Below, piece by piece: positions 735-27,986 of a stretch of DNA of 64,000 nt. The DNA lies in contig OZ024743.1 of NCBI GenBank assembly GCA_964016885.1, positions 29,760,001-29,824,000 of the forward strand, given 5' to 3'. Under the pieces are notes generated by a model. That model saw nothing but the letters and a program-made list of their open reading frames with translations, made no database searches and was not told where the DNA came from. A program made the translations under genes and the position numbers. Numbering within the stretch: position 1 is the first letter of the stretch; each line of letters starts with the position of its first letter. This DNA comes from Eledone cirrhosa. Its lineage: Eukaryota.

Positions 735-1070
735 AAGGTATATGCCTTAGTGGTTAGAGCATTTATCTTGCAAACGGAAGGTTGTGACTTCGATTCTCGG
801 ATCGGGTGATGCGTTGTGTCCTGGAACAAGTCACTTTATTTTACGTTGCTCCAGTTTACTCAGTTGTAGAAATGAGTTGCGACATCACTAGTGTCAAGCT
901 GTATCGGCCATTGCCTTCCTTTGGACACCATCAGTGACGTGGAGAGGGGAGACTTTTATGCATGGGCGACTCCTGGTCTTCCACAAACAGCCTTGCTCAG
1001 ACTTGTGCCTCAGAGGGAAACTTTCTACGTGCAAATTCTAAGGTCATTCGTGACTGAAGCGGGTCTTTAC
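735..1070 (+). mobile_element. tRNA-derived SINE with CORE-like central domain
   Basis: tRNA-like head (CCTTAGTGGTTAGAGC...TTCGATTC) followed by GTTGTGTCCTGGAACAAGTCACTTTATTTTACGTTGCT. Related segments lie on the minus strand at about 10750 and 63630. Confidence 0.7.
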
Positions 1071-1094
1071 ACTTTACATATATATATATATATA

Positions 1095-4000
1095 GAATGA
1101 GAAAGAGCGAAATAGTTTCAGATGTTAAAGTCCTTTAATGATAATGCTGTGATGCATATTTCAATGGCGACAGTGGCCCCACGGTTCCATGCGCCAGTGA
1201 CGCGACATCGTCAGACAGCTTGTTACATAATAAGATTAAGTTTCCGAGGCAATCCAAATTGAATCGACATGGGAACGGACAAAGCGTGTGCTCTTGATTT
1301 CTTCGTTCCCTTGTGAGTACCAATTCACCCCCACCGGTCTGCGCAGGCACAGGCCCGAAGGAAGTTGACCATCAACTAACGCAGATTTCTACGAAACTCA
1401 CCTAGGCAGTTACCCCTCTCAACCAAACAATGACCCATCCAGGCCTGTAATATGACACGATTATAGTTTCCTGCTAGCCACCTTGTTAGTGGCAATCGTC
1501 CGAAAGCTAGTGGGGTTGGGAGAGTATGAGTATCAATAGGTCTCAATACTACCCTAAATTAAGCATGGACAGTAGAATTGACAATCAACCTCTAAAAGAA
1601 TATATACTTATTTCTAGGTATTATGGTTTCACATTGGAAATTATAAATGAGAGTTGGAAATTAAAACTAAAAATTAAAAATCAAAAGTCAGAAATCAAAA
1701 GTGAAAAAAATTACAAGTTAGAATCTAGATTGGAGTGAGTAAACAAATATATGCACATATAATAACTAATAAATAGGGAGATGTTTAAGTAAGAAGTTTT
1801 GAAAGGGGATCAATGTTACAGATATATTATCTACATACTGAACGATAGTACCGTACAATAGAACGGAGGGTAAATTATTACAGTATGAAGGTAGTAGTTA
1901 GGCGAATACATAGTTAGTATTTCTATCACATGGAACAAAATCAGAAAAAAATACAGATATTAAATACACAAAAAAAAATACATACAATACATATATGCAA
2001 AATGAGATAGGAGATGCTGATGTAAAATGAGATATGAGATATATATATGAGAAATATATACTAGGAAGATAAACTGCATGGAAATGAAGGTATACGTGGT
2101 TAATATGATTGTCAATTTGTCCATATGTAGATTTGTTATATGGTAAATTGAGGGTGTTTCAGTTAAAATGCAATTTGCTGCAGGAAAATAGGGGTGCATC
2201 GTTATTTTTATTCCCGCGTATTTATCCTGTCGAAAGTTAGTTTATAATTTCCTGTTCGTCCAGTATCAGGGATTTACATCCCCATGGTAGAGGGAATTTC
2301 CGTGTGTGACTAGTGGCTGGTTCCTCTCTTCTCCACTATATTGTTAACACCATAGAGCGCTCAACGTCTTGGAACTAAATTCTTAAGGTAAATATTGATG
2401 CAATTCAATTCAAGCACTCAACTTACTTTTTCCACATAGGAGTGACGGAGTATATTTTGAATAAGATAAAGCGAAGTAGTTTCAGATGTTAAATTCCTTT
2501 AATGATAATGCTGTGATACATATTTCAATGGTGACAGTGGCCACACGGTTCCGTGCGCCAGTGCCGCGACATCGTCAGACAGCTTGTTACATAATAATGT
2601 TATGTTTCCGAGCCAATCCAAATTGAATCGACATGGGAGCGGACAAAGCGTGTGCTCTTGAGTTCTTCGCCCGTTCCCTTGTGAGTACCAATACACCCCC
2701 CAGCGGTCTGCACAGGCGCAGGTCTGAAGGAAGTTGACCATCAACTAAAGCAGATTTCTACGAAACTCGCCTAGGCAGTTACCCCTCTCAACCAAACAAT
2801 GACCCATCCAGGCCTGTAATATGACACGGTTATAGCTTACTGCTAGCCACCCTGTTAGTGACAGTCGTCCGAAAGCTAGTGTGGTTGGGAGAGTATGAGT
2901 ATCAATAGGTCTCAATACTACCCTAAATTAGGAACGGAGGGTAAATTACAGTATGAAGGTAGTAGTTAGGCGAATACATAGTTAGTATTTCTATCCCATG
3001 GAACAAAACCAAAAAAAAAATACAGATATAAAATACACAAAAAAATACATACTATACATATATGCAAAATGAGATAGGAGATGCATATGTAAAATGAGAT
3101 ATGAGATATATGTGAGAAATATATACTAGGAAGGTAAACTGCATGGAAATGAGGGTATACGTGGTTAATATGATTGTCAATTTGTCTATTATATAGATTT
3201 GTTATCTGCTAAAGTGAGGGGGCTTCTGTTCGAATGCAATTTGCTGCAGGAAAATAGGTGTTTATCGTTGTTTTTATTTCCGCGTATTTATCCTGTCGAA
3301 AGCTAGTTTATAATGTTATGTCCGTTCTATTGTACGGTACTATCGTTCAGTATGTAGATAATATATCTGTAACATTGATCCTCCTTTCAAAAATTCTTAC
3401 TTAAACATCTCCCTATTATATGTGCATATATTTGTTTACTCACTCCAATCTAGATTCTAACTTGTAATTTTTTTATTTTGGATCTCTGATTTTTTATTTT
3501 TTATTATTAATTTTTAATTCCAACTCTCATTCATAATTTCCACTGTGAAACCATAATACCTAGAAATAAGTATATATTCTCTTAGATGTTGATGGTCAAT
3601 TCTACTGTCCATGCTTAATTTAGGGTAGTATTGAAACCTATTGATACTCATACTCTCCCAACCCCACTAGCTTTCGGACGACTGCCACTAACAGGGTGGC
3701 TAGCAGTAAACTATAATCGTGTCGAATTACAGGCCTGGATGGGTCATTGTATGGTTGAAAGGGGTAACAGCCTAGGCGAGTTTCGTAGAAATCTGCGTTA
3801 ATGATGGTCAACCTCCTTCGGGCCTGCGCCTGCGGAGACCGGTAGGGGTGAATTGGTACTCACAAGGGAACGAAGAACTGAAGAGCACACGCTTTGTCCG
3901 TTCCCATATCGATTCAATTTGGATTGCCTCGGAAACATAACATTATTATGTAACAAGCTGTATGACGATGTCGCGTCACTGGCGCATGGAACCGTGGGGC

Positions 4001-5521
4001 CACTGTCGCCATTGAAATATGTATCACAGCATTATCATTAAAGAAATTTAACATCTGAAACTACTTCGCTTTTTTCTGATTCGATATATACTCCGTCACT
4101 CCTATGTGGAAAAAGTACGCTGAGTGCTTAAATTGTATTGCATCAATATTTACCTTAAGAATTTAGCTCCAAGACGTTGAGCGCTCTATGGTGTAACCAA
4201 TATAGTGGAGAAGAGAGGAACCAGCCACCAGCCACACCCAGGAAATTCCCTCTACCATGGAGATGTAAATCCCTAATACTGGACGAACAGAAAATTATAA
4301 ACTAACTTTCGACAGGATAAATACGCGAAAAAAAAACAACGATGCACCCCTATTTTCCTGCAGCAATTTGCATTTGAACAGAAACACCCTCAATTCACCA
4401 TATAACAAATCTATATATAGGACAAATTGACAATCATATTAACCACGTATACCCTCATTTCCATGCAGTTTACCTTGCTAGTATATATTTCTCATATATA
4501 TCTCATATCTCATTTTACATATGCATCTCCTATCTTATTTTGCATATATGTATTGTATGTATTTTTTTTGTGTATTTATATCTGCATTTTTTTTCTGGTT
4601 TTGTTCCATGTGATAGAAATACTAACTATGTATTCGCCTAACTACTACCATCATACTGTAATTTACCCTCCGTTCTATTGTACGGTACTATCGTTCAGTA
4701 TGTAGATAATATATCTGTAACATTGACCCCTTTTCTAAACTTCTTACTTAAACATCTCCCTATTTATTAGTTATTATATGTGCATATATTTTTTTACTCA
4801 CTCCAATCTAGATTCTAACTTGTAATTTATTTTTTTTTTATTTCTGACTTTTGATTTTTAATTTTTAGTTTTAATTTCCAACTCTCATTTATAATTTCCA
4901 CTGTGAAACCATAATACCTAGAAATAATTATATATTCTTTTAGAGGTTGATGGTCAATTCTACTGTCCATGCTTAATTTAGGGTAGTATTGAGACCTATT
5001 GATACTCATACTCTCCCAACCCCACTATCTTTCGGACGACTGCCACTAACAGGATGGCTAGCAGTAAACTATAATCGTGTCATATTACAGGCCTGGATGG
5101 GTCATTGTTTGGTTGAGAAGGGTAACTGCCTAGCGAGGTTCGTAGAAATCTGTGATAGTGATGGTCAACTTCCTTAGGACCCGCGCCTGCGCAGACCGAT
5201 TGGGTCAATCGGTACTCACAAGGGAACGGGCGAAGAACTCAAGAGCACACGATTTGTCCGTTCCTATGTCGATTCAATTTGGATTGCCTCGGAAACATAA
5301 CCTTATTATTAATTAACAAGCTGTATGACGATGTCACGGCACTGGCACACGGAACCGGGTGGCCACTGTCGCCATTGAAATATGTATCACAGCATTATCA
5401 TTAAAGGACTTTAACATCTGAAATTACTTCGCTTTTTCTTATTCAATATATACTCCGTCACTGCTATGTGGAAAAAAATACGTTGAGTGCTTGAATTGAA
5501 TTGCATCAATGTTTAACTTAA

Positions 5522-5522
<1 letters not shown>
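1095..5522. mobile_element. Tandem plus inverted array of a 1.36-kb non-coding unit (non-autonomous PLE / retrozyme-like)
   Basis: Period 1364 bp (AGTTTCAGATG at 1114 and 2478). Orientation flips at about 3321 and inverted copies run to 5522. (TA)n on both sides; no RT ORF. Confidence 0.7.
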
Positions 5523-5581
<59 letters not shown>

Positions 5582-5583
<2 letters not shown>

Positions 5584-5729
5584 GTACGTTATTCCGAGTT
5601 GAATCGGACGTAACCACAGTAAGTAAGGTACTCAATACATTGCAGAGTATAAAAGTTTTAAATCTCAGATTCCTGATGATTTCTAAAGAATGAAACAGTC
5701 CTAGTCCTGTAGAATCTCATCTATATTAA

Positions 5730-5733
<4 letters not shown>
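5582..5733 (+). mobile_element. Short pLTR-like element between (TA)n tracts
   Basis: Same family recurs at 62137-62295. Contains a hammerhead motif. Confidence 0.6.
5667..5717 (+). ncRNA. Type I hammerhead ribozyme motif
   Basis: Stem I AGATTC/GAATCT; core CTGATGA; stem II TTC-TAAA-GAA; GAAA; stem III ACAG/CTGT; cleavage triplet GTA at 5709-5711. Confidence 0.7.
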
Positions 5734-5763
<30 letters not shown>

Positions 5764-6275
5764 GCATATGCTCAGTTGCTTCCTCATGTGTGTAGTCGTT
5801 TCTCTCACCTATTTATTTGATGGAATGGTGACTTCTCGGGTTTGATGACTGGTTAAGTGGCTAATAGTTTCGAATTAACTGATGGTGATTGTAGGGTATT
5901 GGCTATGTTGAATCAGTTGGTCGTAGTCTTTGAGTCGATTGAGCGTGTTTCTGTGTTACGGTTAAGGTTTGTAAGGCGGATGTACCGGTTGTAGATACTA
6001 AGGTTTGTACTGCCCATGTCTGAAATCAGTGTCACTAAGGTAAGAGCGTTGCTCTTTCTCAGATTATTATTATATAGAAACTACATAAAGAACGGCTAGT
6101 GTCTGACGAGTTCGTCATCTACATAGCTGGAACTGGTGCAAATCAGTGTTTGTCTTGGAGGGAATTGAGTTTATATTTAAATGGACATGCTCTGAGTCTC
6201 AATGTAGATGTACATCTTACATTTGGTTTATTTTATGGTTGGATTTCGTTTTAGCTGGAGTTATTTGAATTCCTA

Positions 6276-6404
6276 AGGCGGCAAAATGGTAACGTCGGAT
6301 AGAGTGAATTGTGGTATACGTTTCGGTTCTGTGCTGTGTCAGTTCAAATCTTGTTGAAGTCAACTTCACCTTTTATCCATTACCGGTCTAGTACTGGGGT
6401 TGAT
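6276..6404 (+). mobile_element. Degenerate SINE, same family as 362-543
   Basis: AGTTCAAATCTTGTTGAAGTCAACTTCACCTTTTATCC...GTACTGGGG aligns by eye with 432-510. Confidence 0.5.
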
Positions 6405-9004
6405 TCTTCCTCTATATCTCTTTCTCACTTTCTATTCTTCTCTGAAAGAAATCTGGTGTATTCATACATCCGCCATGTTTAAAATAAAAATACCATAGAA
6501 ACGCTGTATATCAATACGGCGCGCCTACGACTCCCTCGGCATTACGGGACCATACATACAGTTACGTTTTTAATTACACTTACATCCAAATAACGAAAAT
6601 ATCAAGAAGAAGATGTTTTTACAGAGCAAATTATTATGATTTGTACACAGAAAAATCTATTTGGGCACATATCATCTGCCTGATGATATGGCTAGCAAAC
6701 ATAATTTGCATATATACACCATTGCTAGTGCATGAAACGCTTGGTGTCTATGAATTTGACCTCAGAACGTAAGATAATAAGTGTTATTTTAGTAGTTTAT
6801 ATCTATATGGGATTGATTTTAGCAATTTGAAATTCTCACTCCAACGGTTGAAATATCAATGTGAGTTAATGGCAAAAATATGTTCAACGTAACTAGTCTT
6901 CCATGTCGAATGCCCTCAATCTTAAAACCAGAAGCTGCATAATTTAAACCTCTAGACGGCTTCCTATGTTTCTTAAATATTGCCGCACAGATATAAAAGT
7001 TTACTAGATAACCTCATTGACGAATATCTCGTTATTCTCGTCATCTCATATTCTATATTCTTCTCAGTTTCCGGCTAGTTTATTTAATTTTATCTTCAGA
7101 ATTACATACTTAACTCAAATAATTTTTCGCCATTTATTAGTAAATATGCTTACATTATGACAATTAATCAGCTTATATGTGAAATGTTTTGAAACGAACT
7201 TCGATATTCTACACCATATTGTCATTCAGTGTTTCTTTTCAAAGCGTTGTACATACTTTCTGCTGGGTATCTATCTACACAAAGGCATATTTAAATATAT
7301 TACATTTTATATGTATGTTACCAAAGTGTACAGGGAAAATAATTTATGCAACTATGTTACCATATGCATACTATTTCAGATTTTCTCTGTATCGAGATAT
7401 GTACAATGAATTGCTAAGACATCTAATTCACAAGCTTCTTTTAGGCTATAGCCGTTTCCACAGCATTGGTATTGCTATCGTTCTATTTTCAGGCATGGCT
7501 AGTACATATGATTTATATGTTGTGGGTATCATAATGTCACGCTCATAGATTGGTTTAAAGTTGTTATAATAATATTATGCTAGTGATCAATATTTATAAG
7601 TGTAAATCTGTTTACACCAATGTTTCTGGTTACTGTCTTGTACAATACTTGATAATCTATAACTGGAGATATTCCGTGGCACCATTCTGAGGTTTGACAA
7701 TATGTTCATATAAATCTGGTCATTCTTATATTTATAGGATTGAAAGATATTAATAAATTACATTTAAACTGAAAATGCTCTATAAAATATTATACTTCAG
7801 AAATTATGTTTTTAAGCTGCTCTAACACAGCGGACATTAACGGAGGAAGGGAAGTTCGGATTTGATACATATAAAATAAAATTCAAATTCATGTAATCTA
7901 CATTTTTGTTTATTTTATTTTTTATCTCGATTCAGTAACTGTTTAATAGACATATTGACTCTTTGTACTTAATTCAATTTGATGTGTATCGAATTCTAGC
8001 TATTAAATGGTTAAGTATCATTTGCTGTGATAGAATACAACTAGAAGTATGTTTAACATTCTTATTTATATTTTGTTTTTTCTTGCGTATGAGACAGCTG
8101 CAATTATGTGATATCCCCAAGGCTATGTAACTAGCTCACAGTAAGAGGATTAGGGTATGTGAGATCCATATTCCAGATAGGCAAAGATCCTAGCACCCGC
8201 GTAATTTTTGCTGAGAGAGCAGGAGAGAATTCATACCGTTATACAAAAATACTTACATGGACATATTTATAAAAACTATATACCAGGCAGATATCCTTAG
8301 AATTTCTATACCCACTTCCATACAAAAGGCAATGTCAGAAAGAATGCTCTGTCCTGCAGGGGGTTCTACCACAAAATTACAGGGTTTTGAAGCAAAATTA
8401 TTAACATCCTTGCCACGTTGATACCTACATATATTTCTTTTAAAATTGAAAACCTAGTAGCATACTGTTCGAAATTGATTTGGAATTGCAAACTGTGTCA
8501 CTAGATCAGAATTCTGCTTACAGATGTATAACACAATTATTAATACAGTTCAATACTTTTATAGTATTTATTTTAAATACTATAAAATCAAGTCTTCACA
8601 TTTTAATACATTGTTTAGCATTTACTAGAATTTAATAACGATAATTAATTTATCACACATATGTTAACATTTCCCCAGCACAATATTGATTCCAGCATTG
8701 ATACTGCACATATATTACTTTAAGGGGTCATATATTATTAAATCTAACAGTATATAGTTACAATTTATTTATTTATTGATGCAGCAGATATGAAAAACAA
8801 AATTCACTGAGGTTTTATTTCAATTCAAAACACATAAACATAGATAACGTCACACTAGCGAATTCAACTAATATTATAGTAAAATGAAAATTATATTTGT
8901 GATCGAATAATATTAATTTTCTTCTTACTGCATCAACTATTTTCGTTTGCGTGTTAGTGTTAGTTGCATTAAATATATTATCATTCATTTAAACATCTTG
9001 TTAT

Positions 9005-9175
9005 ATGGACAGATTTTACGGCAAAACTAACAGGCAAAACCAACACTGAACAAGATGGTTGGATAACATCCATGAGCTTGGCTGGTCTCGCTTGGGAATC
9101 CAGCCGGATCTGTTGGACACGATTGCTTCTGACAGGACCCACTGGAGTAAGTGGGTGAAGAAGAACAACAACAAG
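9005..9175 (+). mobile_element. RTE-clade LINE 3' remnant
   Basis: A + frame reads RWLDNIHELGWSRLGIQPDLLDTIASDRTHW, matching the RW.D...A.DR..W C-terminus typical of RTE ORFs. It is followed by a short AAG/AAC tail. Confidence 0.6.
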
Positions 9176-10749
9176 AAGTGTTTGTAATGTGGATGGTATC
9201 TGTGACTTAGCTATTCTCAATTTTCCTAGCATGTCATTGACAAATATTTTTATTTGTATTTACAACATTATTATATTTAGTGAGAGTTTTAATTATCACT
9301 TCATATGTTCCCTTAACTGGTAGTACGATTAGTCGTATATATGAGCAGTGACTTACTAGAGCGGATATATTGCCGGAACATATAACTTGCGGTATGTGCT
9401 TGCGTAACATTAACTTGTCTTTATTCTCAAAAAGCTTTTATACGAAGTCTACATTTAACCTATACACTATTAGCGATGTCAAATCATTTCTAAATCTGCT
9501 TCACAGCTGACTACATACCTAGTACAACTTTCATGAATTCTACATTCCGCCTATATATTTAGTCACCATAATAACATATCAGTTATCGACTCGATATTAG
9601 GTATAACTCAACTCGACAGATAAGGGATTGTATATCCAAGCGTTATTTACCGCATGTAACTTTTACGTGTCATAAAATATGTATATAGTCTGTTATATAG
9701 GCCAGTGAATCTGCAAATTAATCTTCAGGGTATAATGCTTTTTTTTTTGTTCTACGCACAGTCTGGTGCGTTATATGATAGTAAACAATCTAATAACCAA
9801 TGTTTTGTAATATAGGTGAGAAATATATGACAGGTCTGAAGTTGTCAAACTTTGACGTGCAATGTTCTTCACAGTACTGCTATGGAAGAGTCACTGTTTC
9901 TCAAAATCCTATTGATATATAAACTAATGATATAACAATAATTAATTTGAGGAATCGAAAAGTGTTTCTAGTATGCGACTTGCGATAATATTTCATGGTT
10001 TTCGACGATAATCATTAATTTATTCTATCAACTACCAGAATGGTTGCTCCGGCTTCTAAACATAGATTGGCATGCTTTCTGAAACAGTACAGAGAAGGAC
10101 GGAATACCTCGGCTTGGGGATGGTGTCTACCTTTTGTGCTTCACGTGACTCAATGTGTCCCGGGTACATGTACTTTTAACGTAATTCTCCCGCCGAATCT
10201 GTATGACAAAATATATGGTGAGGCTGGACATTTGAAATATAGTTATATCCCATCGGACATTCTTCGCAGTGTCTCACGTTTCTCTGTTTGACTTACCAAC
10301 CTCTATGTTAAAAAGAGTTGTCACAGACGTCACGAAGTGTGTTCGATACAGAGACCTTATAATTGCGAATGTAGTTCATAGTCATCGAGTTTAACTGCGT
10401 CCACTTGTTGAACTATATTGTCCCTCCGATTTAGGGGTTATATCGTTTCCTTATTTCTTGTGTCTATGATTGTTGCAATATATTGTGTGTATGAATTAGG
10501 ATATTATACTTCAAATTCTGCTAAATCACTTTTCACGTGGATAATAGCATGGTGGTCATATACGAGTACATAGTGTTCTCGCTACTTTTTGAGTTAACAT
10601 TAATCGCTCTGAACCATCGAGAACATCCCAGTCCTCATTCGCCTGCCGAGTGACGTGAACCTCATCAAATCGGACCACTGAAAGAATGTTTTCATTGGTC
10701 TTTCCATTAATGATACTATTTACCGGTCGCAACTCCTGGCAAAAGGGGT

Positions 10750-10835
10750 TACGTGAAATAAAGTGTCGTGTTCAAGAACACATCACCCGGTCGGAGAATT
10801 GAACTCGCAGCCTTAATAAAGACGAAGCCACGCGC
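10750..10835 (-). mobile_element. CORE-like SINE fragment
   Basis: Reverse complement GTGTTCTTGAACACGACACTTTATTTCACG resembles 815-845. Confidence 0.45.
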
Positions 10836-11286
10836 ATTGCTGGATGGGAAGAATTGGCTGTGTCGCAGATCTATATGTTTCTTTTCGTCCCGAGTTCGAA
10901 TTCTGGGACTGATAAAATAATCACAATTTTGAATTTCTGAGATTGGTATGATCAAATGTAAGGAGCCACCAAATGTGAGGTCATGTATCTATGTATAAAA
11001 TCAACATTTGAAGATGAAAAACGTCAAGAAGTGTACAGGAAAAATGTATGATATCTACGGGGAGGAAATCGAAAGTCAGGTGTTCCAAGAAATATTATGT
11101 ATGAATGAGGGTATCCGTTACTAGTGGTGGAATCAGTTTTTATTGACTTATAAGGATCAGTCTGTCGAAACAAGAACCTTGCGTTATTTTCTTCCATATC
11201 AATCGTTTATCCATATCCCTCGTTGTTTTGGCCCTTGCTTTTACTGCAAGTTCGATAAATTAAGAACGAAAAAAAGGTACTCATGG

Positions 11287-11287
<1 letters not shown>

Positions 11288-11317
<30 letters not shown>

Positions 11318-11336
11318 CTTCTTCTTCTTCTTCTTC
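11288..11336. repeat. (CTT)n microsatellite
   Basis: Directly visible. Confidence 0.95.
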
Positions 11337-12279
11337 TCTCACATATTCCAGAGAATGCCTTGAGGCCAAACACCAATCAGAAGCAGCTGTTTTCAATTGA
11401 CGCAGTACTCGTGGTCGGTATATTTAATTATTTAAAACATATCCTTAACCTGACCAGTGTTCCATTACTGAGCTCTAAATGTAGGCATAATATATTAATT
11501 TCTATTTATTACAAAAACACCTTGTATCAGGCTTTCCTTACTGTATATCTGTTTTCCGTCTGCAATATATTGAATGTTTTAATACTATTAACTCCTCTTG
11601 CATTCAAGTAGTTTCTGAATTGGGAAGTATACCAGTGAATGGAGGGACTAAGTTACCGTATTCAAAGTTGTATGATACTTTTTAAATATATTAATTAAGG
11701 CTTTTGTATAAAGACACTGAAACATTAGTCCGTCTCAATATGTTTAACTTACATACAACTTATTCGAAAAGTTTAGCACGAAGTTTTGCCAAAACGTAAC
11801 AAGAAACCGTCCATTGAGCAGGTTTATCTTATGTCTTAAGGACGAAATATACAATTCTCTTACACACTTTATGTTCTTCATTATCTTTTCATACTTAATA
11901 ATATCCCTCACAATTTCTATCATGGTCCTATAATATTCCTTTGTTTTCTAATTTCATCTCTTCGTGTTTATCTTAAACTTGTTGGCCACTGAAGACATCT
12001 CGCTATTCAAATATTTGAACTCGTGGTAAATTCACCTAGTTGCTGCCAAATAATTAGTTTCCTTCGACATTTTGAGAAATACTCCTAACAGGTTCAGACA
12101 ACTTCTATCTAAACTTAATATAGTTCTTCAAAATGGAATCTTTATAATCGATTTTCATACAACAGCTAAAGTAACCTTACGGGCTTACTACTCTTCTATG
12201 TAGAAGCTTGTTAGTAACGATCTCTTTGTTTTGGAAGAGAAGTCTACATCAGAAAAACACCTTAAGGCAATAAAGAATA

Positions 12280-14472
<2,193 letters not shown>

Positions 14473-15780
14473 CTAGCATTAAAGACCGGCGTTGGTCGGG
14501 GTCTGTAAGTTACCATAGTTAGGTTGCACCACCCATTTTATGCAGCACTTTTTTGATTTCCAGGCACTGGGTGAATGTATTGCAGACCTGGACTGCCGAA
14601 GCAGGAGCTGCGCCAGCAGTGACAATTGTAGTTTCGCCTATGGATATTATCTCTGTGCAAAGAAGTGTTGAAATTTATTGTCTCACAGTACTTCTGCAAC
14701 ACGCGCGTAGACGATGCCAGCCGAACAACAGAACTGCGATGGAGTTGTTCTGCATGGTTGTCTAATGTGTGTTTTCTAAATTTAAGACAGTAGGGAGTGG
14801 TGTGATATGGAGGAGTGTTAGTTGCTGTTTCTAGCAGGTTTAGTGACCTCATAGAGGATATTATTGTGTCTAGTAAAAGAACTGATACTTCTTTCTTCCA
14901 CGTTCGTTGATAGATGTTTTAAAAAATATTTATCGCTATTTTTCTTTGTTGTTGAATAAATTTATATGTTGCTTTTGAATAATTGCTGTTTCGTATGAAA
15001 TGTAATAAGTTCTCTTTGTCATTGAAGTAAATATATGTTTGAGCGTTCCACACTCAAAAACAAACGTTCTCTCTCTCTCTCCCTATCACTCTCTCTCACT
15101 CTCTCACTCTCTTTCTCTTAAAGTTTGTAAGTTTAATCGTATATAAGAGAAGGTTGCAGCATGTATGTAGTTTTATCGAATTTTAAGGAGAGTAGAGAGA
15201 GGATATCTGATTGTATTAGAGGGGTAAAGCGTCATGTATTTAGTTTTATCGATTATTTCCGTAATTGTGGGTGAGTCTGAATGAAATAAATAGTTGGTGA
15301 CCTAAGTTCAACATTATTACAGACATTGAATCGAATTGGTTTGAAATTGTGCAAATGTATAAACATGGAAGATGTGCACACACACAACAACAACAATCTG
15401 CCTTTTATAGATAATGATATATATGAATTCTAAAGGAGATATCATCGAAATTAACAACACTTATCATGATGATTGACACACACTCCTCTATTTTAAAGGA
15501 AATAGAAAAACAATCTACAGACGGAAAACTTATAACTGAATATATAAACTCTGAAATTAAGAATTTAGCTGAAATTATACCAACAGTTATCAAAGATACA
15601 AGAGAAAGCCTACTCTCTTGGATGTCAGAATTAAACGAAAGAAATTTGGAAAACAAAACACATCGAATAAGAAAAGAAATGTGGAAGACATGGAAAAAAT
15701 TTCTTAGCATAAGAAAACAAAACTTATGGAAAGTATACAAATGCGAAAAATATGCCGAAACACTTTCAAAATGGTTGTTT

Positions 15781-16270
15781 GGTTAGAGATGTTGTCACCA
15801 ATTTAGCGGAGAAGTATATTCCAGAGAGTTGTAATGTCGCCACGAGGAACCAGGTTTGGTAGAAAGATATGATAGGAATATCGACAACGACTTTAGCTTG
15901 TTTTTACATTATTTATTAACCAAGGTTAAGAAATGAATTAGGCTGGCATGCCAAGAGAAATGAAATAATTCAATTAAGATTACAAGTGAAAATACGGGCG
16001 ACTGGCTGAAGGCGTTTGGCAAGGCTTCTAGGTAATGTTTTGTCGTTACATATTGTTTGTGCTTACGGAGCAAAAGAACAAGTGGTGTTTACCTTAGCAC
16101 GGTCTAGCAGGAAGTGATAGCGTCCTCAAATCTTTGTGGGCTATTTCTCCCTCAGAACCCGTAGGGATACATCCTCTTCTACTGGCGCTGATTGGCTGAG
16201 CTGAGCCAAATCACGCACAGAGAATGTACGTGAGCCCGCGGAATGTAGGTCACTACAGATGTTTCTAACG
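15781..16270 (-). mobile_element. Probable solo LTR interrupting the PLE ORF
   Basis: About 490 bp separates ...ETLSKWL from PILSPKYLITE. CCAAT and AATAAA lie on the minus strand. Short imperfect inverted ends (TGTAATG at 15830, CACTACA at 16257). Exact ends and TSD are ambiguous. Confidence 0.45.
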
Positions 16271-19200
16271 GCACCTATACTCTCTCCTAAATACCTAATT
16301 ACAGAAATTGCAGGAGAACCAGAAGAAGAAACAAAACTCCGATGGGAACTTACATTGATGAAATTCAGGACCGACATCTCCATTACTCAATGTAAACAAT
16401 CCCGCTGCAAAGCCAAATACGAAGCTATCGATGACCAAATTGAAGTCGAAATTTCGAAACTAACGACTGATAATATAGCTGAAAAACTACGAGAACTATG
16501 GATCAGAGATATCTCAAAAGAAGAAAGCAAATCAAGAAAATTATGGCAACAGAAACAATTATTTCTCGACGAATATGCTGCAAATTACGGTAAAAACTCT
16601 GGAACTCTGAGAAAAGGCATTAAAAGTGGACAATCTCGCCAACACAACATTCACCAGAACACGTGGCAACACAAACACTCACCTTACCTTGAATCAAAGA
16701 AGTACTACGGTAAGAACTCTTCGCTTTTTCTACAAAAACACCCTAACGCACACAACATGAACAAAAAAGCACAAACACGATAGATATTCCTTTGACCAGA
16801 CCATGAGAAGTAGTAAAACCAGGGGATCATTCTCAAGATGTACACAGAGACTACCCACAAGGAAGGGGGAAAACCGTAGAATAAACAGATCACTCTCAAG
16901 ATCTAAACAGAGATTACCCACAAGGAACTGGGGGAAAAAAACGATCTAAACCTGAGAGCAAACCTAGGTCATTTTCCCAGATTGTTAAAAATAGTACTAA
17001 CAAGAAATGGAAAAATAATATACATAATACCAAAAATAGGACAAAAAAACATAACGAAACCAAATATAATATCACGACCAAATGTTCATCAAGCAAACAC
17101 CAACAGGAATATAAATCCTGAACAGAGATAAAAAACATTTTTTAACGTCAGGACAACAAAAACCGGAAAAAGAAAATCTCCAGGAGGAAACATACCCAAA
17201 ACAACTGAACATGTAGATCCTAAAATAATTAATTTATCCAAAAAGATTTTGACATTGATGAAATGCAAATTCTGTCAAAAGGACTGAAATTCACACCGAC
17301 TCCAACGGTCAACCACCAAGAACTGAAGGAGGATACCCAAGAATTCTGTCGTAAATTACGACTTGTAGAATTCTTCGCTGATAAAAGTAATGAGAGTTTT
17401 GAATCACTAGTAAAGAATGAATCAAATTTCACTGCACCAAAAGGAAGAAATATCTATCTCGACCAATACAATGATATCTTGTCTAAATTTCCACTTAGAC
17501 GTAATACTAATGTTATGCCAAACATTAACAAATCGGAAATGTCTGCACTTAAACGTATACAAAATGATAAAATAATAATAATTAAACAAGCAGATAAAGG
17601 GGGTGCAATTGTTATAATGGATTCTGAATACTACAAACATTTGGATGAGGAACAACTAAAAGACACAACAGTCTATCATGAAATACCGTCAAATATAGAC
17701 CACAAAATCATGAAGAAGATCAACAACCTGGCTTCAAAATACTACAAATCACTTACTGATAACGAAAGAGATTACATCACCAATTTTGAGCCAAAACCCA
17801 GCATCTGTATGACCTACCGAAAGTTCATAAGTCAAAAGAAATCCAACTATCAGTAAAAGAACAAAACAGTGAGTACATTAAATTACTACCCGAAAGACTT
17901 AAACGTAGCTGGTCCAACATGCCCTACCCACCGTCTAAGCAATTTTGTTGACATTATTTTGAAACCACTATGTTTCATCCGGGATGATATCGACGTCCTG
18001 TCCCATCTTCCCAAAACCACGGAAACGAATTCACTTCTACTTAATTTACACCAACATTAAACATGATTTAGGAATAAAGGCGGTTAAATACTGGGTGGAA
18101 AAACATAGAGAGGTGATTCCCACCAGATTCACAGCGCCATTTATATTAGACGCAGTCAAACTTAATCTGGAAAACAACATTTTCTTCTTCAATGGAAAGA
18201 ATTACATCCAAATTAGAGGCACAGAGATGGGAACGAAGTTTGCTCCCGTTTACGCGAACTCTGTAATGTGATACTTAGAACAATAACTCTACCAAGAAAT
18301 AGAGGAAAAATATAGCACTGAATTTAGAAAGTACATTGAACAGTCTTGGAAGAGATACTTTGACGACTGTTTCATCATCTGGACAGAATTTCTAGATACA
18401 CTGGATGAATTCAATATCCTCCTGAATAACCTACACCCATCTCTCCAATTCACAAAAGAGATGAGTAGTACCAAATTACCATTACTAGATATAATGGTAA
18501 TCAAAAACTACACCACCATTACCACGGATATATACTTTAAACACACAGACACCCATCAATATCTGAATTTTAAGTCGTGCCATCCACCTCATACAAAACG
18601 CAACATCCCATACTGCCTAGCCAGAAGAATTTGTACCATTGTAGAAGATACGAATACCAGGAACAAACGCCTAACAGAATTGAGAGTATTTTTGCTCAAA
18701 CAAAAATACCCATCTCTACTTATAGACAATGGCGTAGAGCGGGCTATAAAAATACCTATACAACAACTTAGGACAATCCAAGGAAGAAGAAACCAAGAAC
18801 TGCTCATACCATTTATAATGACACACAACCCATGTCACCAGAATATCTTCAACACTGCAAAAACCAAACCTACCGATCATTGCTCAAAGTAATGAATTAA
18901 AAGGTTTAATCACAGACCGATCTTTGACTCTTAGTAAAAGACAGCCGAAAAATTTGAAGCAATTACTAATAAAGGCAAAGATTGATCTTAACAACAAAGA
19001 CCAATCATTCCCTGTATCTAAATGCAATGATAGTCGATGAGGCCCATGTCAATCCATACACGCTGGCCAATATATGAACACAAAAACTGGAATAATATTC
19101 CCAAATGCAAATATGAACTGCAAAAGCAGAAATCAAATTTACAGCATTAAATGCCCGAATTATGAATATGTCGGTCAAACTGGAAATGCACTATCGGTAC

Positions 19201-19802
19201 GTGCACGGGTGCATCGACAGCAAATCAGAGATCCAAATGTCAGTCAGATACCCCTGAGTAACCATCTAGCAACATGTGGTCAGAAAATATTTATAACATT
19301 TCCATTCTACAAATTACACAGCCCAAGTGAAATCAAGAGAAAAATTAAAGAAAATTATTTTATTTATAAATTCCAACCCAAGCTAAATGAACAATAATAA
19401 TGCATAGAGGTATTGCTCCTACTATGACTTCGCCTACGACCATGTAAACTACCACCACTAACGACAACAACAACAATAATAATAATACAAGTGATGTTGA
19501 TGGTGATGATTACTGAAGATTTTTTCATAAGACACACTAGAAAATGCTATTTCATCATTTCTAAAAATAGTAAAACAATTGATGCTTTGGATAGGGTCAA
19601 ATAGCAGTCGTTAGACATGCCCAACCAACCATGACGCCTAAATCAATAAGATTTAGTAATCTAGTGAAACTACACATCGATTGGTCGAAATACAGTTTGC
19701 AAAACTTAGCATTCTGTAGCCCCTTTTTACTGTATATAAGGCACAGAATTTACCCATCTCATTACAGTTGAAAATTGCAAACTTGGCTGTCACCACTGAA
19801 TA

Positions 19803-22319: not shown

Positions 22320-23249
22320 GAAATGTATTAGTGTGGTGTCGCACATGTTAAACAGAAGGTGCAGAAAGAATAATGTTATTTACAAACAAGGTTTATGAAG
22401 TGAAAAGAAAAAAGAAAAAGGAAAAAAAAACGTACATAATGTAGAGCATAAAAAGTCAATGTGGAAGAAAATATAATGTTATTTACAGGCATAGTTATTG
22501 AAGTTAAGCAGATCAAAATGTGTTAATATAGCAAGAGTGCTTAGTTGATCCATGATTCCATGATGGAGGCAAATGGTGGACTGAGGTTTGATATGATTTC
22601 CCTTTTTAGAGAGTTAATATGCAGGGGGAAGCAATTCTTGTTGGATGATATTTAATTTATCCTAAACGGACGGTAGTCCGTTTAGTAATATTGTTATGGT
22701 CGTGTTTTCGTTGGCAATCGTCTGTTTACGACAGTACAGCGCGGCTCTACTTTATTTAACTGAGATAAAACTTATATGAGCATGAACAATAGATCATTAC
22801 GCATCTTTTGGCTTAAAAATCTGGAAATTTGGTCCAACGGGAAAAAGTTTATAATCAAAGTTTGCTGATAAATCTTGTGTTCAAGTGAGTGAGTAGTAAG
22901 CGTGGCGCTGTGTGCATTTGATGCATCTATGAGAATCGGCCCGAGATAACAAGGGGAGGTAATTACGAATTTCTCTCTCTCTACGGGGTCATCCAGAAAT
23001 GACGAATTTTTTTCGGCGGAACTCTTGTGATTGTGATTACGTTAGTCAAATGTAGTCAAATCGCCGAATCCCCTCCTCCTAATTGACTACGTTATTACTT
23101 CACTTTTCACTGCAAAAATGCTTTTTAAATACTTCGTTAAAAATTTATGTTTATTATCAAAGCTATTTTCTGTACCAATCTATCAATAGTTTGCGAAAAT
23201 ATAGGTAAACATGTGAGTTAAATTTTTTTTAATCGCATCGATCGCTTTG

Positions 23250-23800
23250 TCGTACCGACTGTGACACTGTCTGACTGTTTGCCTGACTGAGACCTTTGTC
23301 GGACCGACACCTTTGTTCAAGCGGACAACTTTGTGTCACTGACACCTTTGTTCGTGCCGGCATCTCTGCGAAACACCGATGACAACAACCAGACCAAAAT
23401 TTCACTTCATAAACATTTATATGTATGTCTAATGGAGTTACACATCTTTACTGGCAATTCTTCACTATTAAATTTCTTGGTCACAACTTGGACTTGGGGG
23501 GGGATTTTAAAAATAAATATGAACAGTCAAATCAGGTGAAACAAAACAAGCAACAAGCAAGCCACATCATAAGCAAACAAATCATATACGTGCGAAAAAT
23601 TGTAAAAAATGCACATAAAATTTGTAATTAATCCCCTGAAAAATTCATGTGAAAAATCAAAAATATATGGCGCGCGTGAAAAAGATCCCCAAACAAGTTT
23701 GCATGTGAAAATTGACAAAAATGCTGTGTGAAAAAATCAAAAAAACCTCAAAAAAACTTGCATGTGAAAATTGACATTTGCTTTGTATTGTGTAAAATTT
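23250..23800. repeat. Short interspersed direct repeats (GACACCTTTGT-like; CATGTGAAAA-like)
   Basis: About 4 copies of ACC/ACTTTGT at 23290-23352 and about 5 of (CAT)GTGAAAA at 23590-23770. They resemble subterminal repeats of DNA transposons. Confidence 0.55.
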
Positions 23801-24310
23801 GTCACATTTATTGTCATGTCTAATTAAAATGTAATTTTCAACTAAATGCAAATGGTGTAATTGCACCATTTAGATTCAGTTGTTAATGCTCACCTACTAA
23901 ATATTATCTAATATATTTCAAGTTGTATTTTTAACTAAATTCATTTATCATAGTCTAATATTTTAAGAATAGGTGAGTGCTCCACGATGATGACCCATGT
24001 CCTCGCCATGTGGAGTGGATGCTTAGGAGCCATCCAGATATCATGTGACCATTTTTGGTTCGCGGTGTCCACATGATATCTGGATGGCCCTTTATACTAA
24101 TTAGTCATTTATCTGCATAAAAATTATGCCAGATCATTCTGATTATTGGCTTGAAATCTTTTACAAAATTAGTATGAGCAACTAAGAGGCCATCAATAGA
24201 AATATAATTCATTTTTGAAGTTTTCATGCACAGCAATTTTTGGGGATCTTAAATAAAAGTTAATATCATAATTCTTATTTTGTATACCCACATTGCAGAT
24301 ACAGAGAAAC

Positions 24311-25703
24311 ATGACAATCCTATATAAAGGTCGTAGACAGCAGTATCAGTTTTTATCCAATATGAGCAAATTAAACAGTCCACTGAATTTATTGGAATGT
24401 TCATTCATCACAGTTGAACATGCTTATAAGTACATCAAGACCCTATTTTATGGAAAAAAATGACCAACTCTGCCACATTTTGGCAGAAACAGACCCATTT
24501 AAGTAAACATATCCCATACATATTGGATTAAAGTTTACAATGCTATTTTTTTATAGATTGTCAACTTTCGGCAAAGAGAGAGATTTCAAATGGGAATCAA
24601 TCCAGTTTGATCTCATGGTGGTACTGTTGTCAATGAAATTCGAAAATGATCCTCTACTGGCATCAAAACTTCGTGACACGTGGACTGTATGTACATGTGA
24701 CTAGGGTTGCAAACGTTTTTTTTTTTACCATTAAAAAAACAGTAAAAAACGGTTAAAAAATCGTTTTTACCAGACTTGAAAAAGTTTCCAAAATCAGTTA
24801 CAAACGGTTTTTTTACCATTAAAAACCAGTAAAAAACGGTAAAAAAAACGTTTTTTGAAGGAAAAACCATTTGAATCTAGCTCATTTCTTGAATATTTGT
24901 AGCAACAATTGGTCGAGGACACCCCATAATCCAATTTGGGGGCGAGGATTTAATGGGAATGGTACAAATCTCCATGGCCGTTGTTTAACGGTCGTCCGTG
25001 CACTTTTGAATAAAAATCACCCACAATTCAAGTATATTGTGGGTGATTTAATAATTAGAAATGTGGCGAAATCGAATGACCAGAAGGTAGGAAAATATTA
25101 ATTCAAATGTATTTACTTATCATACCAACAAAAAATACTGAGATATTTTGTATACCTGGGGCCCGTCAGGGGCAGGTAATGTTAATCGCCAACATTGTTA
25201 TCTGTTGTCCTTTTGTGAAAGTATTGGTGGTTAATGTCGGCTCTAATGATCTGAATCCTCGTCGCACCGTGGGCACTACAAAGCTGTGCAAAGTAATACA
25301 ACAATTTTTGCCCAAGTATTTTTTATTAATCATTTATTTGTAAATTAAGGACAAAGTGCCCATTCGAGGTACAAAACCGGAGAAACAGGGGAAGAGTCTC
25401 TTTGCAAGGCTACAGAACATAGCGGAAAAGCACCACTGTACACCCATTTTCTACAGTGGTGTCATTCCACGTCCACAAAGTGTAATTGAAAATAAAAATG
25501 ACTTGGGCAAGAGAAGTTCTCGTTTGGAAAAGTTTAATTACTGCATGAAAGAAATGATTCAAAAATTGAACTTGCCCAATCTTCGCAACATTGAAAATTG
25601 GTCAAAATTTGACAAATCTGACTTCAAACCAGACATGATTCATTTGAACAATGTTGGAAATCTTAAATTGACACAAATTTTTGCCAATGTTTTTGCCACC
25701 TGA
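24311..25703 (+). pseudogene. Spliced NADAR (YbiA-like) + SGNH/GDSL hydrolase fusion gene, about 335 aa, with two single-base homopolymer frameshifts
   Basis: Exons 24311-24502, 24557-24686, 24903-25086, 25143-25292, 25350-25703, with GT-AG introns of 54, 216, 56 and 57 nt. NADAR motifs: YQFLSNM, FITVEHAYKYIK, W..IQFDLM..LL.MKF.NDP.L...L.DT, LVEDT.NPIWGRG.NG.G.NLHG..L..VR. SGNH motifs: IVGD(L)IIR, CIPGA, VNVGSND, YSGVIPR, DMIHLN..G. AATAAA at 25741. Confidence 0.8.
24702..24879. mobile_element. Possible hAT-like MITE inside intron 2 of the NADAR-SGNH gene
   Basis: Begins TAGGGTTGCAAA. Internal duplicated block TTTTACCATTAAAAA.CAGTAAAAAACGGT. Right end degenerate and no clear TSD. It explains why this intron is about 4x longer than its neighbours. 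Confidence 0.45.
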
Positions 25704-25883
25704 TCCTTGTTCTATGGCTGACTGACTAATTTTGTGACTTAATAAAATGTCATCATACTAGTAATGCACAATGGTCATTTATAAATTTAAATTTTATTAA
25801 ATAGTTGTTGCTTGCATTGCCTTAAAATAGTAACAAGAATGTACACATACTTTTTTTAAATACATCATTATCAGTCAAATCAG

Positions 25884-26243
25884 TCAAATGTCACTAAAAG
25901 CCAGGTGGTCGATAACAACTTCTATAAGATTAGTTACATGCTCACACATTGGATCACCTCTCATCAATGGCATTGGGTGTCTGTCATAATCGTGGAGATA
26001 ACTGATGAAGTCACAAATGAAGTGATGGTCTTCCAGTGTAAACAACTCCCTATATCCATTGATATATGTGATGGCTTCCGATTCATAGGTGCATTTTATG
26101 AGGAATTCCATGCATCCGATTTTCAGTGATTCAATGGACATTTTATCAGAGATGATAAGGTATTTGACCCCGTTTTGCTTTGTAAGTAAATTGGAGAGAA
26201 TCACTGCAGTCAAAGTCATTTCTTTGCATGGGTTTTTGTCCAT
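25884..26243 (-). CDS. Small protein of unknown function (119 aa), convergent with the NADAR-SGNH gene
   Basis: Open ATG-to-stop ORF of normal complexity in AT-rich DNA. A 43-nt GTAAGT...TTTTTAG intron (26287-26245) ends 1 nt before the ATG. AATAAA on the minus strand at about 25793-25798. Confidence 0.55.
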   Translation of the reverse strand: MDKNPCKEMTLTAVILSNLLTKQNGVKYLIISDKMSIESLKIGCMEFLIKCTYESEAITYINGYRELFTLEDHHFICDFISYLHDYDRHPMPLMRGDPMCEHVTNLIEVVIDHLAFSDI

Positions 26244-26516
26244 TCTAAAAAGTTAAAATGATAAAGTATTACTACTATATAACTTACATCTATTGTTGTA
26301 ACACCATTGAAATGCACAAGTTTCACCAATTCACTATTATGCACTAATCATCTCAAATGCATTCATGATTTACTAGCTTTGTCATTAAGCCAGTTGCCTC
26401 AACTAGATTACAATTATACTCAAAAGAACTTTAAAATGTCAATCACTTGTCAGTAATTCACTATGATCATTTAATTATTAGATAGTTGTTGCTTGCATTG
26501 CCTTAAAAAATAGTAG

Positions 26517-27643
26517 ACCAGATAGAAAAATGCGTACAGCATAAAAAAGTAATATTGTTGGAATATAAACCTTTAAAAATAGAGGACAAGAAACTAAAAT
26601 AAAACTTTAAAAAATAGGACAAGAAACTAAGATAAAACTTTAAAAGAATAGGACAAGAAACTAAGATAAAACTTTAAAGAATTGGACAAGAAATAAAAAA
26701 TTTTACAATAATATTAGTGGCAAAATCTTGTTTGGTAAAAAATCAAGTTCCACATTCATAGGCTCTGGGTTCAACATTCAGAGGTCGTCGTCAGACCGGG
26801 AGGATCATTTGATCCTGGTTTGAACACCAATTGGGCCATAACCATAGCCCTATTTCATTATTCGGCGACACGCCTCATGTGTCATGCATAATGTGAATGG
26901 ACCCATGGGCCCATGAGCACAGATCTTGAGCAGCAGCGGACGGTCTTGTCGTCCCGCTCATCCTTGATCTTGACCAACCCGTCCATCTTCTCCTTGCATC
27001 TTGTCCTTGAGTTCAAGTCTGGCAGTCCAGATGAATGCGCGCCACAGCTTTCTGGTACAGGAAAGGGAGCAGGAGGGCTGGAGGGATGACGGGACAGAGG
27101 GAGGGAGGACCGGTGGTTGAGGGAGGTGCCGTAGTCGGTGGTCAGAGTCGACATCTTGTCCCGGTCGTCTTCTCCATCTTCGTCTGGTGTTGCGGGACCA
27201 GGAGTGCATTCTTGGAGGAGACCTGCAGCTGCATCGGCCAATTCTTCTTGCAATGGTCATTCTGACGGAGCAGAACTGCTCAGCCAACCAACCCCAACGA
27301 GAAACAACCGCTCAGGGGCAACGCACAATGAGAGCATGACAATTATTATGCACTAATGAAGAAGATACTGGGGCATAGCACAGGAAACGAATAAAAAAAT
27401 GTTGCCACTAATATTATTGTAAAATGTTTTATTTCTTGTCCAATTCTTTAAAGTTTTATCTTAGTTTCTTGTCCTATTCTTTTAAAGTTTTATCTTAGTT
27501 TCTTGTCCTATTCTTTTAAAGTTTTATCTTAGTTTCTTGTCCTATTCTTTTAAAGTTTTATTTTAGTTTCTTGTCCTGTATTTTTAAAGGTTTATATTCC
27601 AACAATATTACTTTTTTTTGCTGTACGCATTTTTCTATCTGGT
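26517..27643. repeat. About 210-240-bp inverted repeat containing 33-34-bp tandem units, enclosing a GC-rich 680-bp core
   Basis: Arms at 26517-26723 and 27402-27643. Unit AGGACAAGAAACTAAGATAAAACTTTAAAAGAAT, 3 full copies on the left and 4 on the right. Confidence 0.85.
26882..27253 (-). CDS. Putative ORF of unknown function within the inverted repeat
   Basis: 123-aa ORF in a GC-rich island (non-ATG start in the track; frame uncertain). It has the same upstream motif as the 25884-26243 ORF. Confidence 0.3.
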   Translation of the reverse strand: MQEELADAAAGLLQECTPGPATPDEDGEDDRDKMSTLTTDYGTSLNHRSSLPLSRHPSSPPAPFPVPESCGAHSSGLPDLNSRTRCKEKMDGLVKIKDERDDKTVRCCSRSVLMGPWVHSHYA

Positions 27644-27656
27644 TTATATATATATA

Positions 27657-27986
<330 letters not shown>

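Follow-up and report, generated by a model that had tools for sequence, protein, structure and literature searches.

The window (the whole 64,000-nucleotide stretch of Eledone cirrhosa DNA that was analyzed) carries on its plus strand, at 24311-25703, a gene predicted to consist of five exons and to encode a NADAR domain followed by an SGNH-hydrolase domain. Exon 1 (24311-24502) encodes the N-terminal part of NADAR (Pfam model positions 4-67), with E36 at 24416-24418 and K43 at 24437-24439; exon 2 (24557-24686) encodes the middle part (positions 82-115), and exon 3 (24903-25086) the C-terminal NADAR motif (positions 118-162, with E112 at 24915-24917) together with SGNH block I. Blocks II (PGA) and III (GSND) are in exon 4 (25143-25292), and exon 5 (25350-25703) supplies the C-terminal part of the SGNH domain, with its D-x-x-H motif, and the stop codon. 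The predicted introns, all GT-AG, measure 54 nt (24503-24556), 216 nt (24687-24902), 56 nt (25087-25142; acceptor GAG in the window, TAG in sibling copies) and 57 nt (25293-25349, to an AAG acceptor). Within intron 2, at 24701-24880, a 48-nt block is duplicated between two CTAG words and may represent a small insertion nested in an intron that was once short.

The family alignment crosses junctions 1 to 3 without notable gaps (junction 1 is gap-free) and runs through exon 4, so that an additional 45-nt intron considered inside that exon is unneeded. The acceptor of intron 4 has an alternative, CAG at 25388, which scores 217.0 bits against the family profile vs 213.9 bits for AAG at 25349, an acceptor that all copies have; on sequence, the two appear to suit the family about equally. 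The NADAR-SGNH fusion itself is independent of splice prediction, because exon 3 alone encodes both the C-terminal NADAR motif and SGNH block I. Joined without editing, the window exons make 1010 nt and run into a stop after 50 codons. The same exon borders in a sibling copy on another contig (G000:C2:46.82 Mb) yield 1008 nt and an open 335-residue frame with zero edits, which bears out the five-exon, 335-residue model and GT-AG introns of the first-pass annotation. Frames are broken at other places in the two remaining complete siblings, C12 and C28a (that is, one of the three is open). The open sibling frame, the collinear NADAR exons and end-to-end alignment with natural NADAR-SGNH fusion proteins of other organisms indicate that the gene is real.

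The window copy is dead. Alignment of ten copies, with a tally of differences private to the window, assigns it two +1 frameshifts, a lost SGNH nucleophile and a damaged acceptor, all private, along with further private substitutions. The A7 run of exon 1 (24454-24460) has one inserted A and one G-to-A change relative to 4/4 siblings. In exon 3 the surplus base relative to 6/6 siblings is the A at 24926; dropping it restores the frame with the family sequence D-T-P-N, not D-T-H-N. (The first-pass annotation had removed one base from each of two homopolymers; its edit in the A7 run holds, but the second surplus base does not belong to the C4 run.) The nucleophile position reads Leu, through a change at 25049, where 6/6 siblings have Ser, as expected from the annotation's view of this residue as a lesion and of the copy as possibly dead. 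The intron-3 acceptor has changed from TAG to GAG at 25140 (TAG in 5/6 siblings, the sixth being rearranged there). The last two acceptors had been called weak together: GAG is damage private to the window, and AAG at intron 4 is common to all copies. The Asn that precedes WG, previously counted as a sign of decay, is shared by every copy examined and by the relatives P0003 and P0004, and is therefore a family trait. At the homopolymers, where consultation of raw reads had been advised, contigs from three sequencing runs of one sample (possibly the one from which the assembly was made) have the sibling state at 24926, as they do at 25140; at 24457 and 25049 the sibling state is seen in two runs each. 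Contigs from four runs contain no spliced junction, an outcome without bearing on expression. None of the seven gene-bearing places has a lesion-free copy: the open C2 copy is still altered in the WG and D-x-x-H motifs (Asn for Asp in D-x-x-H).

Domain identity and relatives

The sibling exons 1, 2 and 3 match the Pfam NADAR model (PF08719) in order, over the model intervals given above, at 18.7, 13.9 and 16.7-19.6 bits. Each exon alone scores below the cut-off of 35.1; relatives at full length reach 83-91 bits. The C2 model scores 214.7 bits (residues 2-329) when compared with a profile built from seven relatives, and the highest score among 1551 scored shuffles (2000 were made) is 9.0 bits. 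The seeds of this profile came from exon 3, and exons 1, 2, 4 and 5 each match it on their own. Among PDB entries the family profile picks out YbiA (E 1.6e-27), the Phytophthora NADAR 8BAU (5.7e-19), the SGNH esterase 2HSJ and the ZfL2-1 ORF1 esterase 4C1B (E 1.6e-6). The structure predicted for the relative P0003 (pLDDT 86.8, pTM 0.87) is one two-domain unit of NADAR and SGNH, for which Foldseek returns 2B3W (E 7.8e-8), 8BAU (7.4e-7) and, at E values under 1e-5, numerous SGNH structures. Identification of the two domains in the first-pass annotation is thereby upheld.

Through the family profile E36, K43, D73, W76, E112 and W119 correspond to E43, K50, D86, W89, E125 and W133 of 8BAU (residue roles in 8BAU follow PMC11543638). 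R79, R93 and D130 of 8BAU correspond to K, Q and N in this family, and the N at the D130 place is also present in P0003 and P0004. The catalytic set of the YbiA subfamily, a first-helix E and K and a last-strand glutamate, is present as E36, K43 and E112; BC4488-type DarT1-associated NADARs are set apart by a last-strand aspartate in place of this glutamate. The product would resemble E. coli YbiA (2B3W), Phytophthora NADAR (8BAU), DarG1 and T4 AdfN/gp30.3 (PMC11543638, PMC11125620, PMC11257639) in fold, as modelled for P0003, and the YbiA subfamily in its apparent catalytic E...K and last-strand E. It is unlike them in being fused to SGNH, in having N at the D130 position and in having no DarT partner (no DarT gene is found among the scanned ORFs of the element), and it is known here from sequence. 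The SGNH blocks I (GDS), II (G), III (GxND) and V (DxxH) are represented in the family majority by S156, G174, N203, D313 and H316, which relatives also have; on Pfam Lipase_GDSL_3, exon 5 scores 16 bits (cut-off 27).

With exon 3 as query, phmmer finds 15 matches among 1.84 billion representatives: seven NADAR-then-SGNH proteins, two SGNH-then-NADAR proteins of LINE ORF1 type, three other NADAR proteins and three TPR proteins, the last rejected as spurious. Complete compact fusions number four, counting the cluster member P0016, and are 343-367 residues long. At only ~25-38% identity to these relatives, the majority state of the family retains the active-site sets of both domains. The ESM Atlas contains a 51-member cluster of 361-residue proteins of the same overall fold, with Nematoda the commonest phylum (feature score 0.97; TM 0.76 over 330 residues). 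A word-index search with exon 3 confirms 0/13 candidates, and later searches add three partial or close relatives only.

In a NADAR tree of 31 rows, picked by similarity to this family, the eight compact fusions cluster together (93/91) and no sister group is resolved; descent of the compact fusions from LINE ORF1 is accordingly unsupported. A pattern scan of metagenomes finds 10 relatives among 38 matches: three are compact genes that lack introns and lie on short contigs, and the other seven are ORFs, mostly of LINE ORF1 type, three of which adjoin endonuclease-RT; none of the 10 loci has a RepHel match. Narrow pattern scans confirm as relatives 0/31 matches in GTDB genomes and, on both of two occasions, 0/40 in IMG/VR. 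Several LINE ORF1-like proteins (L081, L083, L084, L085, L087; P0008, P0012) combine NADAR and SGNH in one order or the other, SGNH-NADAR with a PHD or zinc knuckle and NADAR-SGNH in L084 and L085; those of L083, L084 and L087 are upstream of endonuclease-RT ORFs. One further locus, L078, was considered as cargo of a cut-and-paste transposon and dropped: its 837-residue ORF truncates the gene, and neither neighbour can be named.

The carrier Helitron and its copies

The gene lies in an internally deleted copy (22658-27642, plus strand) of a ~12.6-kb HLE2-type Helitron that starts with TATCC and ends with CTGG; its ends are common to copies, with a one-base ambiguity at the boundary. The 5' terminal hairpin (22662-22685, plus strand; 10-bp stem, 4-nt loop), read from the sequence and identical in the other copies compared, is followed by the left subterminal inverted repeat (22686-22695, plus strand), whose 10-nt partner at 27601-27610 is ~30 nt before the terminal CTGG. 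The right end (27601-27642, plus strand) comprises this partner, a T-run, a short imperfect hairpin and CTGG. At 23396-23412 is the junction of a ~7.8-kb deletion that has removed the RepHel ORF (DUF6570, HUH Rep, Pif1 helicase, UCH protease). Full copies of ~12.6 kb (the one on C28 spans 800-13429 of the fetched locus) have the ~7.8 kb extra at window position 23410, where Pfam identifies DUF6570 (E 1.5e-12), Helitron_like_N (E 4e-23), PIF1 (E 1e-25) and UCH (E 7.9e-13). RepHel is upstream of the NADAR-SGNH gene and on the same strand. Of the two carriers proposed in the first-pass annotation, a mobile element or a virus, the mobile element thus stands; the element contains no viral gene. That the locus is a NADAR-SGNH fusion gene carried, and decayed, as a Helitron passenger is very nearly certain.

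DUF6570, an HLE2 marker (PMC11417382), UCH and the 5' stem-loop fit 'reverse'-type HLE2 elements (PMC11417382, PMC5148889), the assignment being made by domains and ends. The RepHel C-terminus is UCH, and no endonuclease family, including AP endonuclease, matches RepHel at E up to 0.01; since it lacks an endonuclease, the element falls outside the strict definition of a Helentron (PMC4067079). Left flanks end in A at 23/28 sites and right flanks start with T at 26/26, so that insertion, with terminal CTGG, is mostly A^T, unlike the T^T expected of HLE2 (PMC11417382, PMC5148889); target preference differs among published HLE2 groups (PMC5148889). The FoHeli3-5 'HLE2-reverse' elements of the HLE2/Helitron2 group share with this Helitron the series DUF6570, Rep, Pif1 and UCH, subterminal inverted repeats, a 5' stem-loop upstream of the left repeat and many deletion derivatives (PMC11417382, PMC5148889).

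Near the start of the RepHel ORF a 2A/StopGo-like motif, C-V-E-L-N-P-G-P, follows a hydrophobic helix, with C where the consensus has D. It is seen in four copies (L021:1762-1855, L102, L104, L120) of two subfamilies; Helitrons are not mentioned among the matches listed in a literature search on such motifs. A long perfect hairpin at 24023-24094, upstream of the gene, has weak miRNA-family matches far below gathering score and is absent from the sister subfamily described below; no hammerhead or other Rfam family reaches gathering score within 22500-27800. In the 3' part of the element two open frames of ~120 residues on the minus strand (25884-26252 and 26882-27256) have no credible Pfam match. 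The terminal segment at 26514-27646 is bounded by 34-bp repeat arrays in inverted orientation; compared with most copies it is turned around in the window and in C28a, and recombination between these arrays is the probable cause. Near a contig end (G000:C28:136447001-136459300; L035-L036) one Helitron copy borders directly, at its 3' end, on a tandem array that has an ~80-bp unit and is at least 12 kb long. The element's surroundings in the window, at 15400-19400 and 30500-62000, are dense with what look, by their motifs, like remnants of retrotransposons in decay (Penelope-like RT with GIY-YIG, L1/Tx1-like and RTE-like frames).

The carrier family is young. In a DNA search of its own genome all 40 scored matches (the best 40 of 364 candidates) are 96-100% identical; four of these, the window included, cover the whole gene, and gene-keeping copies differ by 0.7-2.9%. 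Exon 3, which contains the fusion junction, occurs at seven places (of eight candidates), all inside this Helitron and four beside RepHel, an outcome in line with the mobile cargo first proposed. Exon 5 is far more widespread: 150/150 scored matches, the best 150 of 297 candidates. More than 100 derivatives have SGNH parts only, and the most amplified derivatives have lost NADAR. Exon-5 matches at 79-88% were considered as a diverged subfamily and rejected; they are frameshifted derivatives. No donor locus appears in the genome: 7/7 exon-3 places and 2/2 Pfam NADAR matches are Helitron copies, in searches that are weak on intron-split genes.

Elements related through their Rep are without the gene. 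A Rep search gives 68 matches among 150 scored, of which 24 reach 89-100% identity across 150 residues or more and another 21 lie at 62-64%. The NADAR domain is missing from all eight additional copies with RepHel (89-97%) that were examined, and at most its first 16 codons are retained. The sister subfamily, at 89% Rep identity, joins across the gene at a 34-nt direct repeat (25794-25827 and 26475-26508 in the window, plus strand), and one of its copies has a 1904-residue open frame. Its upstream flank is kept, at 72% identity to 24149-24260, which on sequence would be compatible with either loss or gain of the gene. The 62-64% family, found at 21 places (including G000:C5:5366550-5379470), has RepHel frames open for 2230 and as many as 2245 residues and copies 99% identical, and is very young; three of its copies contain no trace of the NADAR-SGNH gene, and the same scan recovered all exons in gene-bearing loci. 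The gene is dispensable in cis for rolling-circle spread, because two related groups with long open transposase frames lack it.

Possible functions and known parallels

The best reading at hand, which we advance tentatively, is that the NADAR half shields nucleic acid of the element by stripping ADP-ribose. The intact product would be a two-domain enzyme. Its NADAR half, which keeps the matches to E43, K50, D86, W89, E125 and W133 of 8BAU, is on that basis a putative N-glycosidase acting on guanine- or cytidine-linked ADP-ribose, and is likely to remove it from the bases of Helitron single-stranded DNA or RNA; its SGNH half may, by its family, hydrolyze esters or bind phospholipids. The substrate could be the rolling-circle intermediate or the transcript, and the mark would be written by a host or microbial transferase. 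NADARs are known to reverse guanine- and cytidine-linked ADP-ribose on single-stranded DNA and RNA (PMC11543638, PMC11833690, PMC12945103, PMC11125620), the target of DarT1 is single-stranded DNA (PMC11125620), and the NADAR AdfN of phage T4 is a counter-defence (PMC11257639). A Helitron exposes single-stranded DNA, and an eraser acting in trans would therefore be an optional gain where a writer exists; the gene may be such an optional advantage. The recurrence of NADAR with SGNH in LINE ORF1-like proteins, in either order, speaks for protection. Against it are the gene-less relatives that thrive, the loss of NADAR from the most amplified derivatives, the lesions in all seven copies, the lack of a RepHel match at any of the 10 metagenome loci of relatives, and the change of R79, R93 and D130 to K, Q and N.

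The same gene-less relatives, seen with the gene confined to one subfamily, favor a neutral account, in which a Helitron lineage acquired the NADAR-SGNH gene intact, from a host or some other mobile element, shortly before its burst and with no gain. Derivatives delete the gene freely, and proteins that equal it in size and fold make up the 51-member nematode cluster. We nevertheless consider it somewhat unlikely: searches of the genome, weak as they are on intron-split genes, show no donor, the majority state retains both active-site sets at the low identity to relatives noted above, and the 72% identity of the sister's upstream flank suits loss as well as gain.

Protection of nucleic acid gives way to handling of membranes, lipids or RNA processing, with no host defence involved, if the SGNH half binds or cleaves phospholipids as an aid to transmission and the NADAR half clears ADP-ribose or N-glycoside by-products. 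The ZfL2-1 ORF1 esterase hydrolyzes esters and binds phospholipids (PMC3905857), a like role has been proposed for texim (PMC4021074), and RNA processing has been proposed for retrotransposon NADARs (PMC12477816). In the commonest derivative (L007-L020; for example L009, ~1350-2150, equivalent to the window from 25051) the first ~48 RepHel codons are in frame with the SGNH block I Ser. The spliced frame is open in 7 of 13 scored cases (the other six fail through a stop codon, an absent end or a splice site without a match), which would suit such an aid, although an open frame may be chance (1-in-3). The persistent fusion of both domains is left unexplained, and we regard this account as unlikely.

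A detoxifier that benefits the host, spread by the Helitron and directed against microbial or prey-derived genotoxins that ADP-ribosylate guanine or cytidine, follows what has been proposed for sponge and other metazoan NADARs (PMC12945103, where CARP-1 homologues are mainly in bivalves). With all copies seen decaying and no preserved domesticated copy among the exon-3 places, it is improbable. NADARs are also known from viruses (PMC11125620), yet Helitron ends and RepHel, the lack of any capsid or viral polymerase in scanned frames and the two empty IMG/VR scans refute a virus as carrier of the window copy and make cargo of an endogenous virus extremely improbable, a viral source further back being possible. 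Broadening the protective reading, NADAR-SGNH might be an ancient counter-defence module that moves among animal transposons (a spliced gene in Helitrons, domains of ORF1 in LINEs) that marks an undescribed host ADP-ribosylation of transposon single-stranded DNA or RNA; this we judge quite unlikely. Should base-linked ADP-ribose be erased, the gene would be the animal counterpart to phage AdfN and a pointer to a chemical anti-transposon defence; as a neutral passenger it would be merely one more captured gene.

Parts of this arrangement have precedents. Texim of fish Helitrons (PMC4021074, reached through PMC12273014) is, compared by description, likewise an intron-containing SGNH gene (S, G, N and H blocks) that is Helitron-carried, multicopy and dispensable (most fish Helitrons are without it). 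Unlike the five-exon gene downstream of RepHel described here, texim can have as many as 15 exons, the coding region of its Helitron lies 3' of it or within its last intron, and in the portions of PMC4021074 at hand NADAR is not mentioned for it. NADARs of the YbiA family are also kept by other eukaryotic transposons, in the Pol of an Ectocarpus Gypsy element and the ORF1 of a Crassostrea gigas Tx1 LINE (PMC12477816); those are fused into Pol or ORF1, and the present one is a separate spliced gene of a rolling-circle DNA element and is fused to SGNH. ZfL2-1 ORF1p (4C1B; PMC3905857) provides a transposon-encoded SGNH domain, which the profile matches at the E value given above, but it is located inside a LINE ORF1 with a coiled coil and, in the text at hand, no NADAR is reported. 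Among the matches listed in searches of the open literature, none describes a NADAR in a Helitron or a NADAR-SGNH fusion, in agreement with the first-pass annotation, which knew of no such animal gene. What is already known, then, is Helitron SGNH genes and retrotransposon NADARs; apparently new are a NADAR in a Helitron and this fusion.

Rolling-circle DNA transposons thus join retrotransposons as captors of NADAR. The NADAR-SGNH proteins of 340-370 residues form a family that is apparently not described before, and its intact natural members, P0003, P0015 and P0016 among them, are already open to assay. NADAR and SGNH/lipase have 0 occurrences among the stably captured domains in the HELIANO supplement, including Table S11 (PMC11417382, supplement as available). 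ORF-based Helitron surveys would miss a gene of this kind, because each exon falls below the Pfam cut-off.
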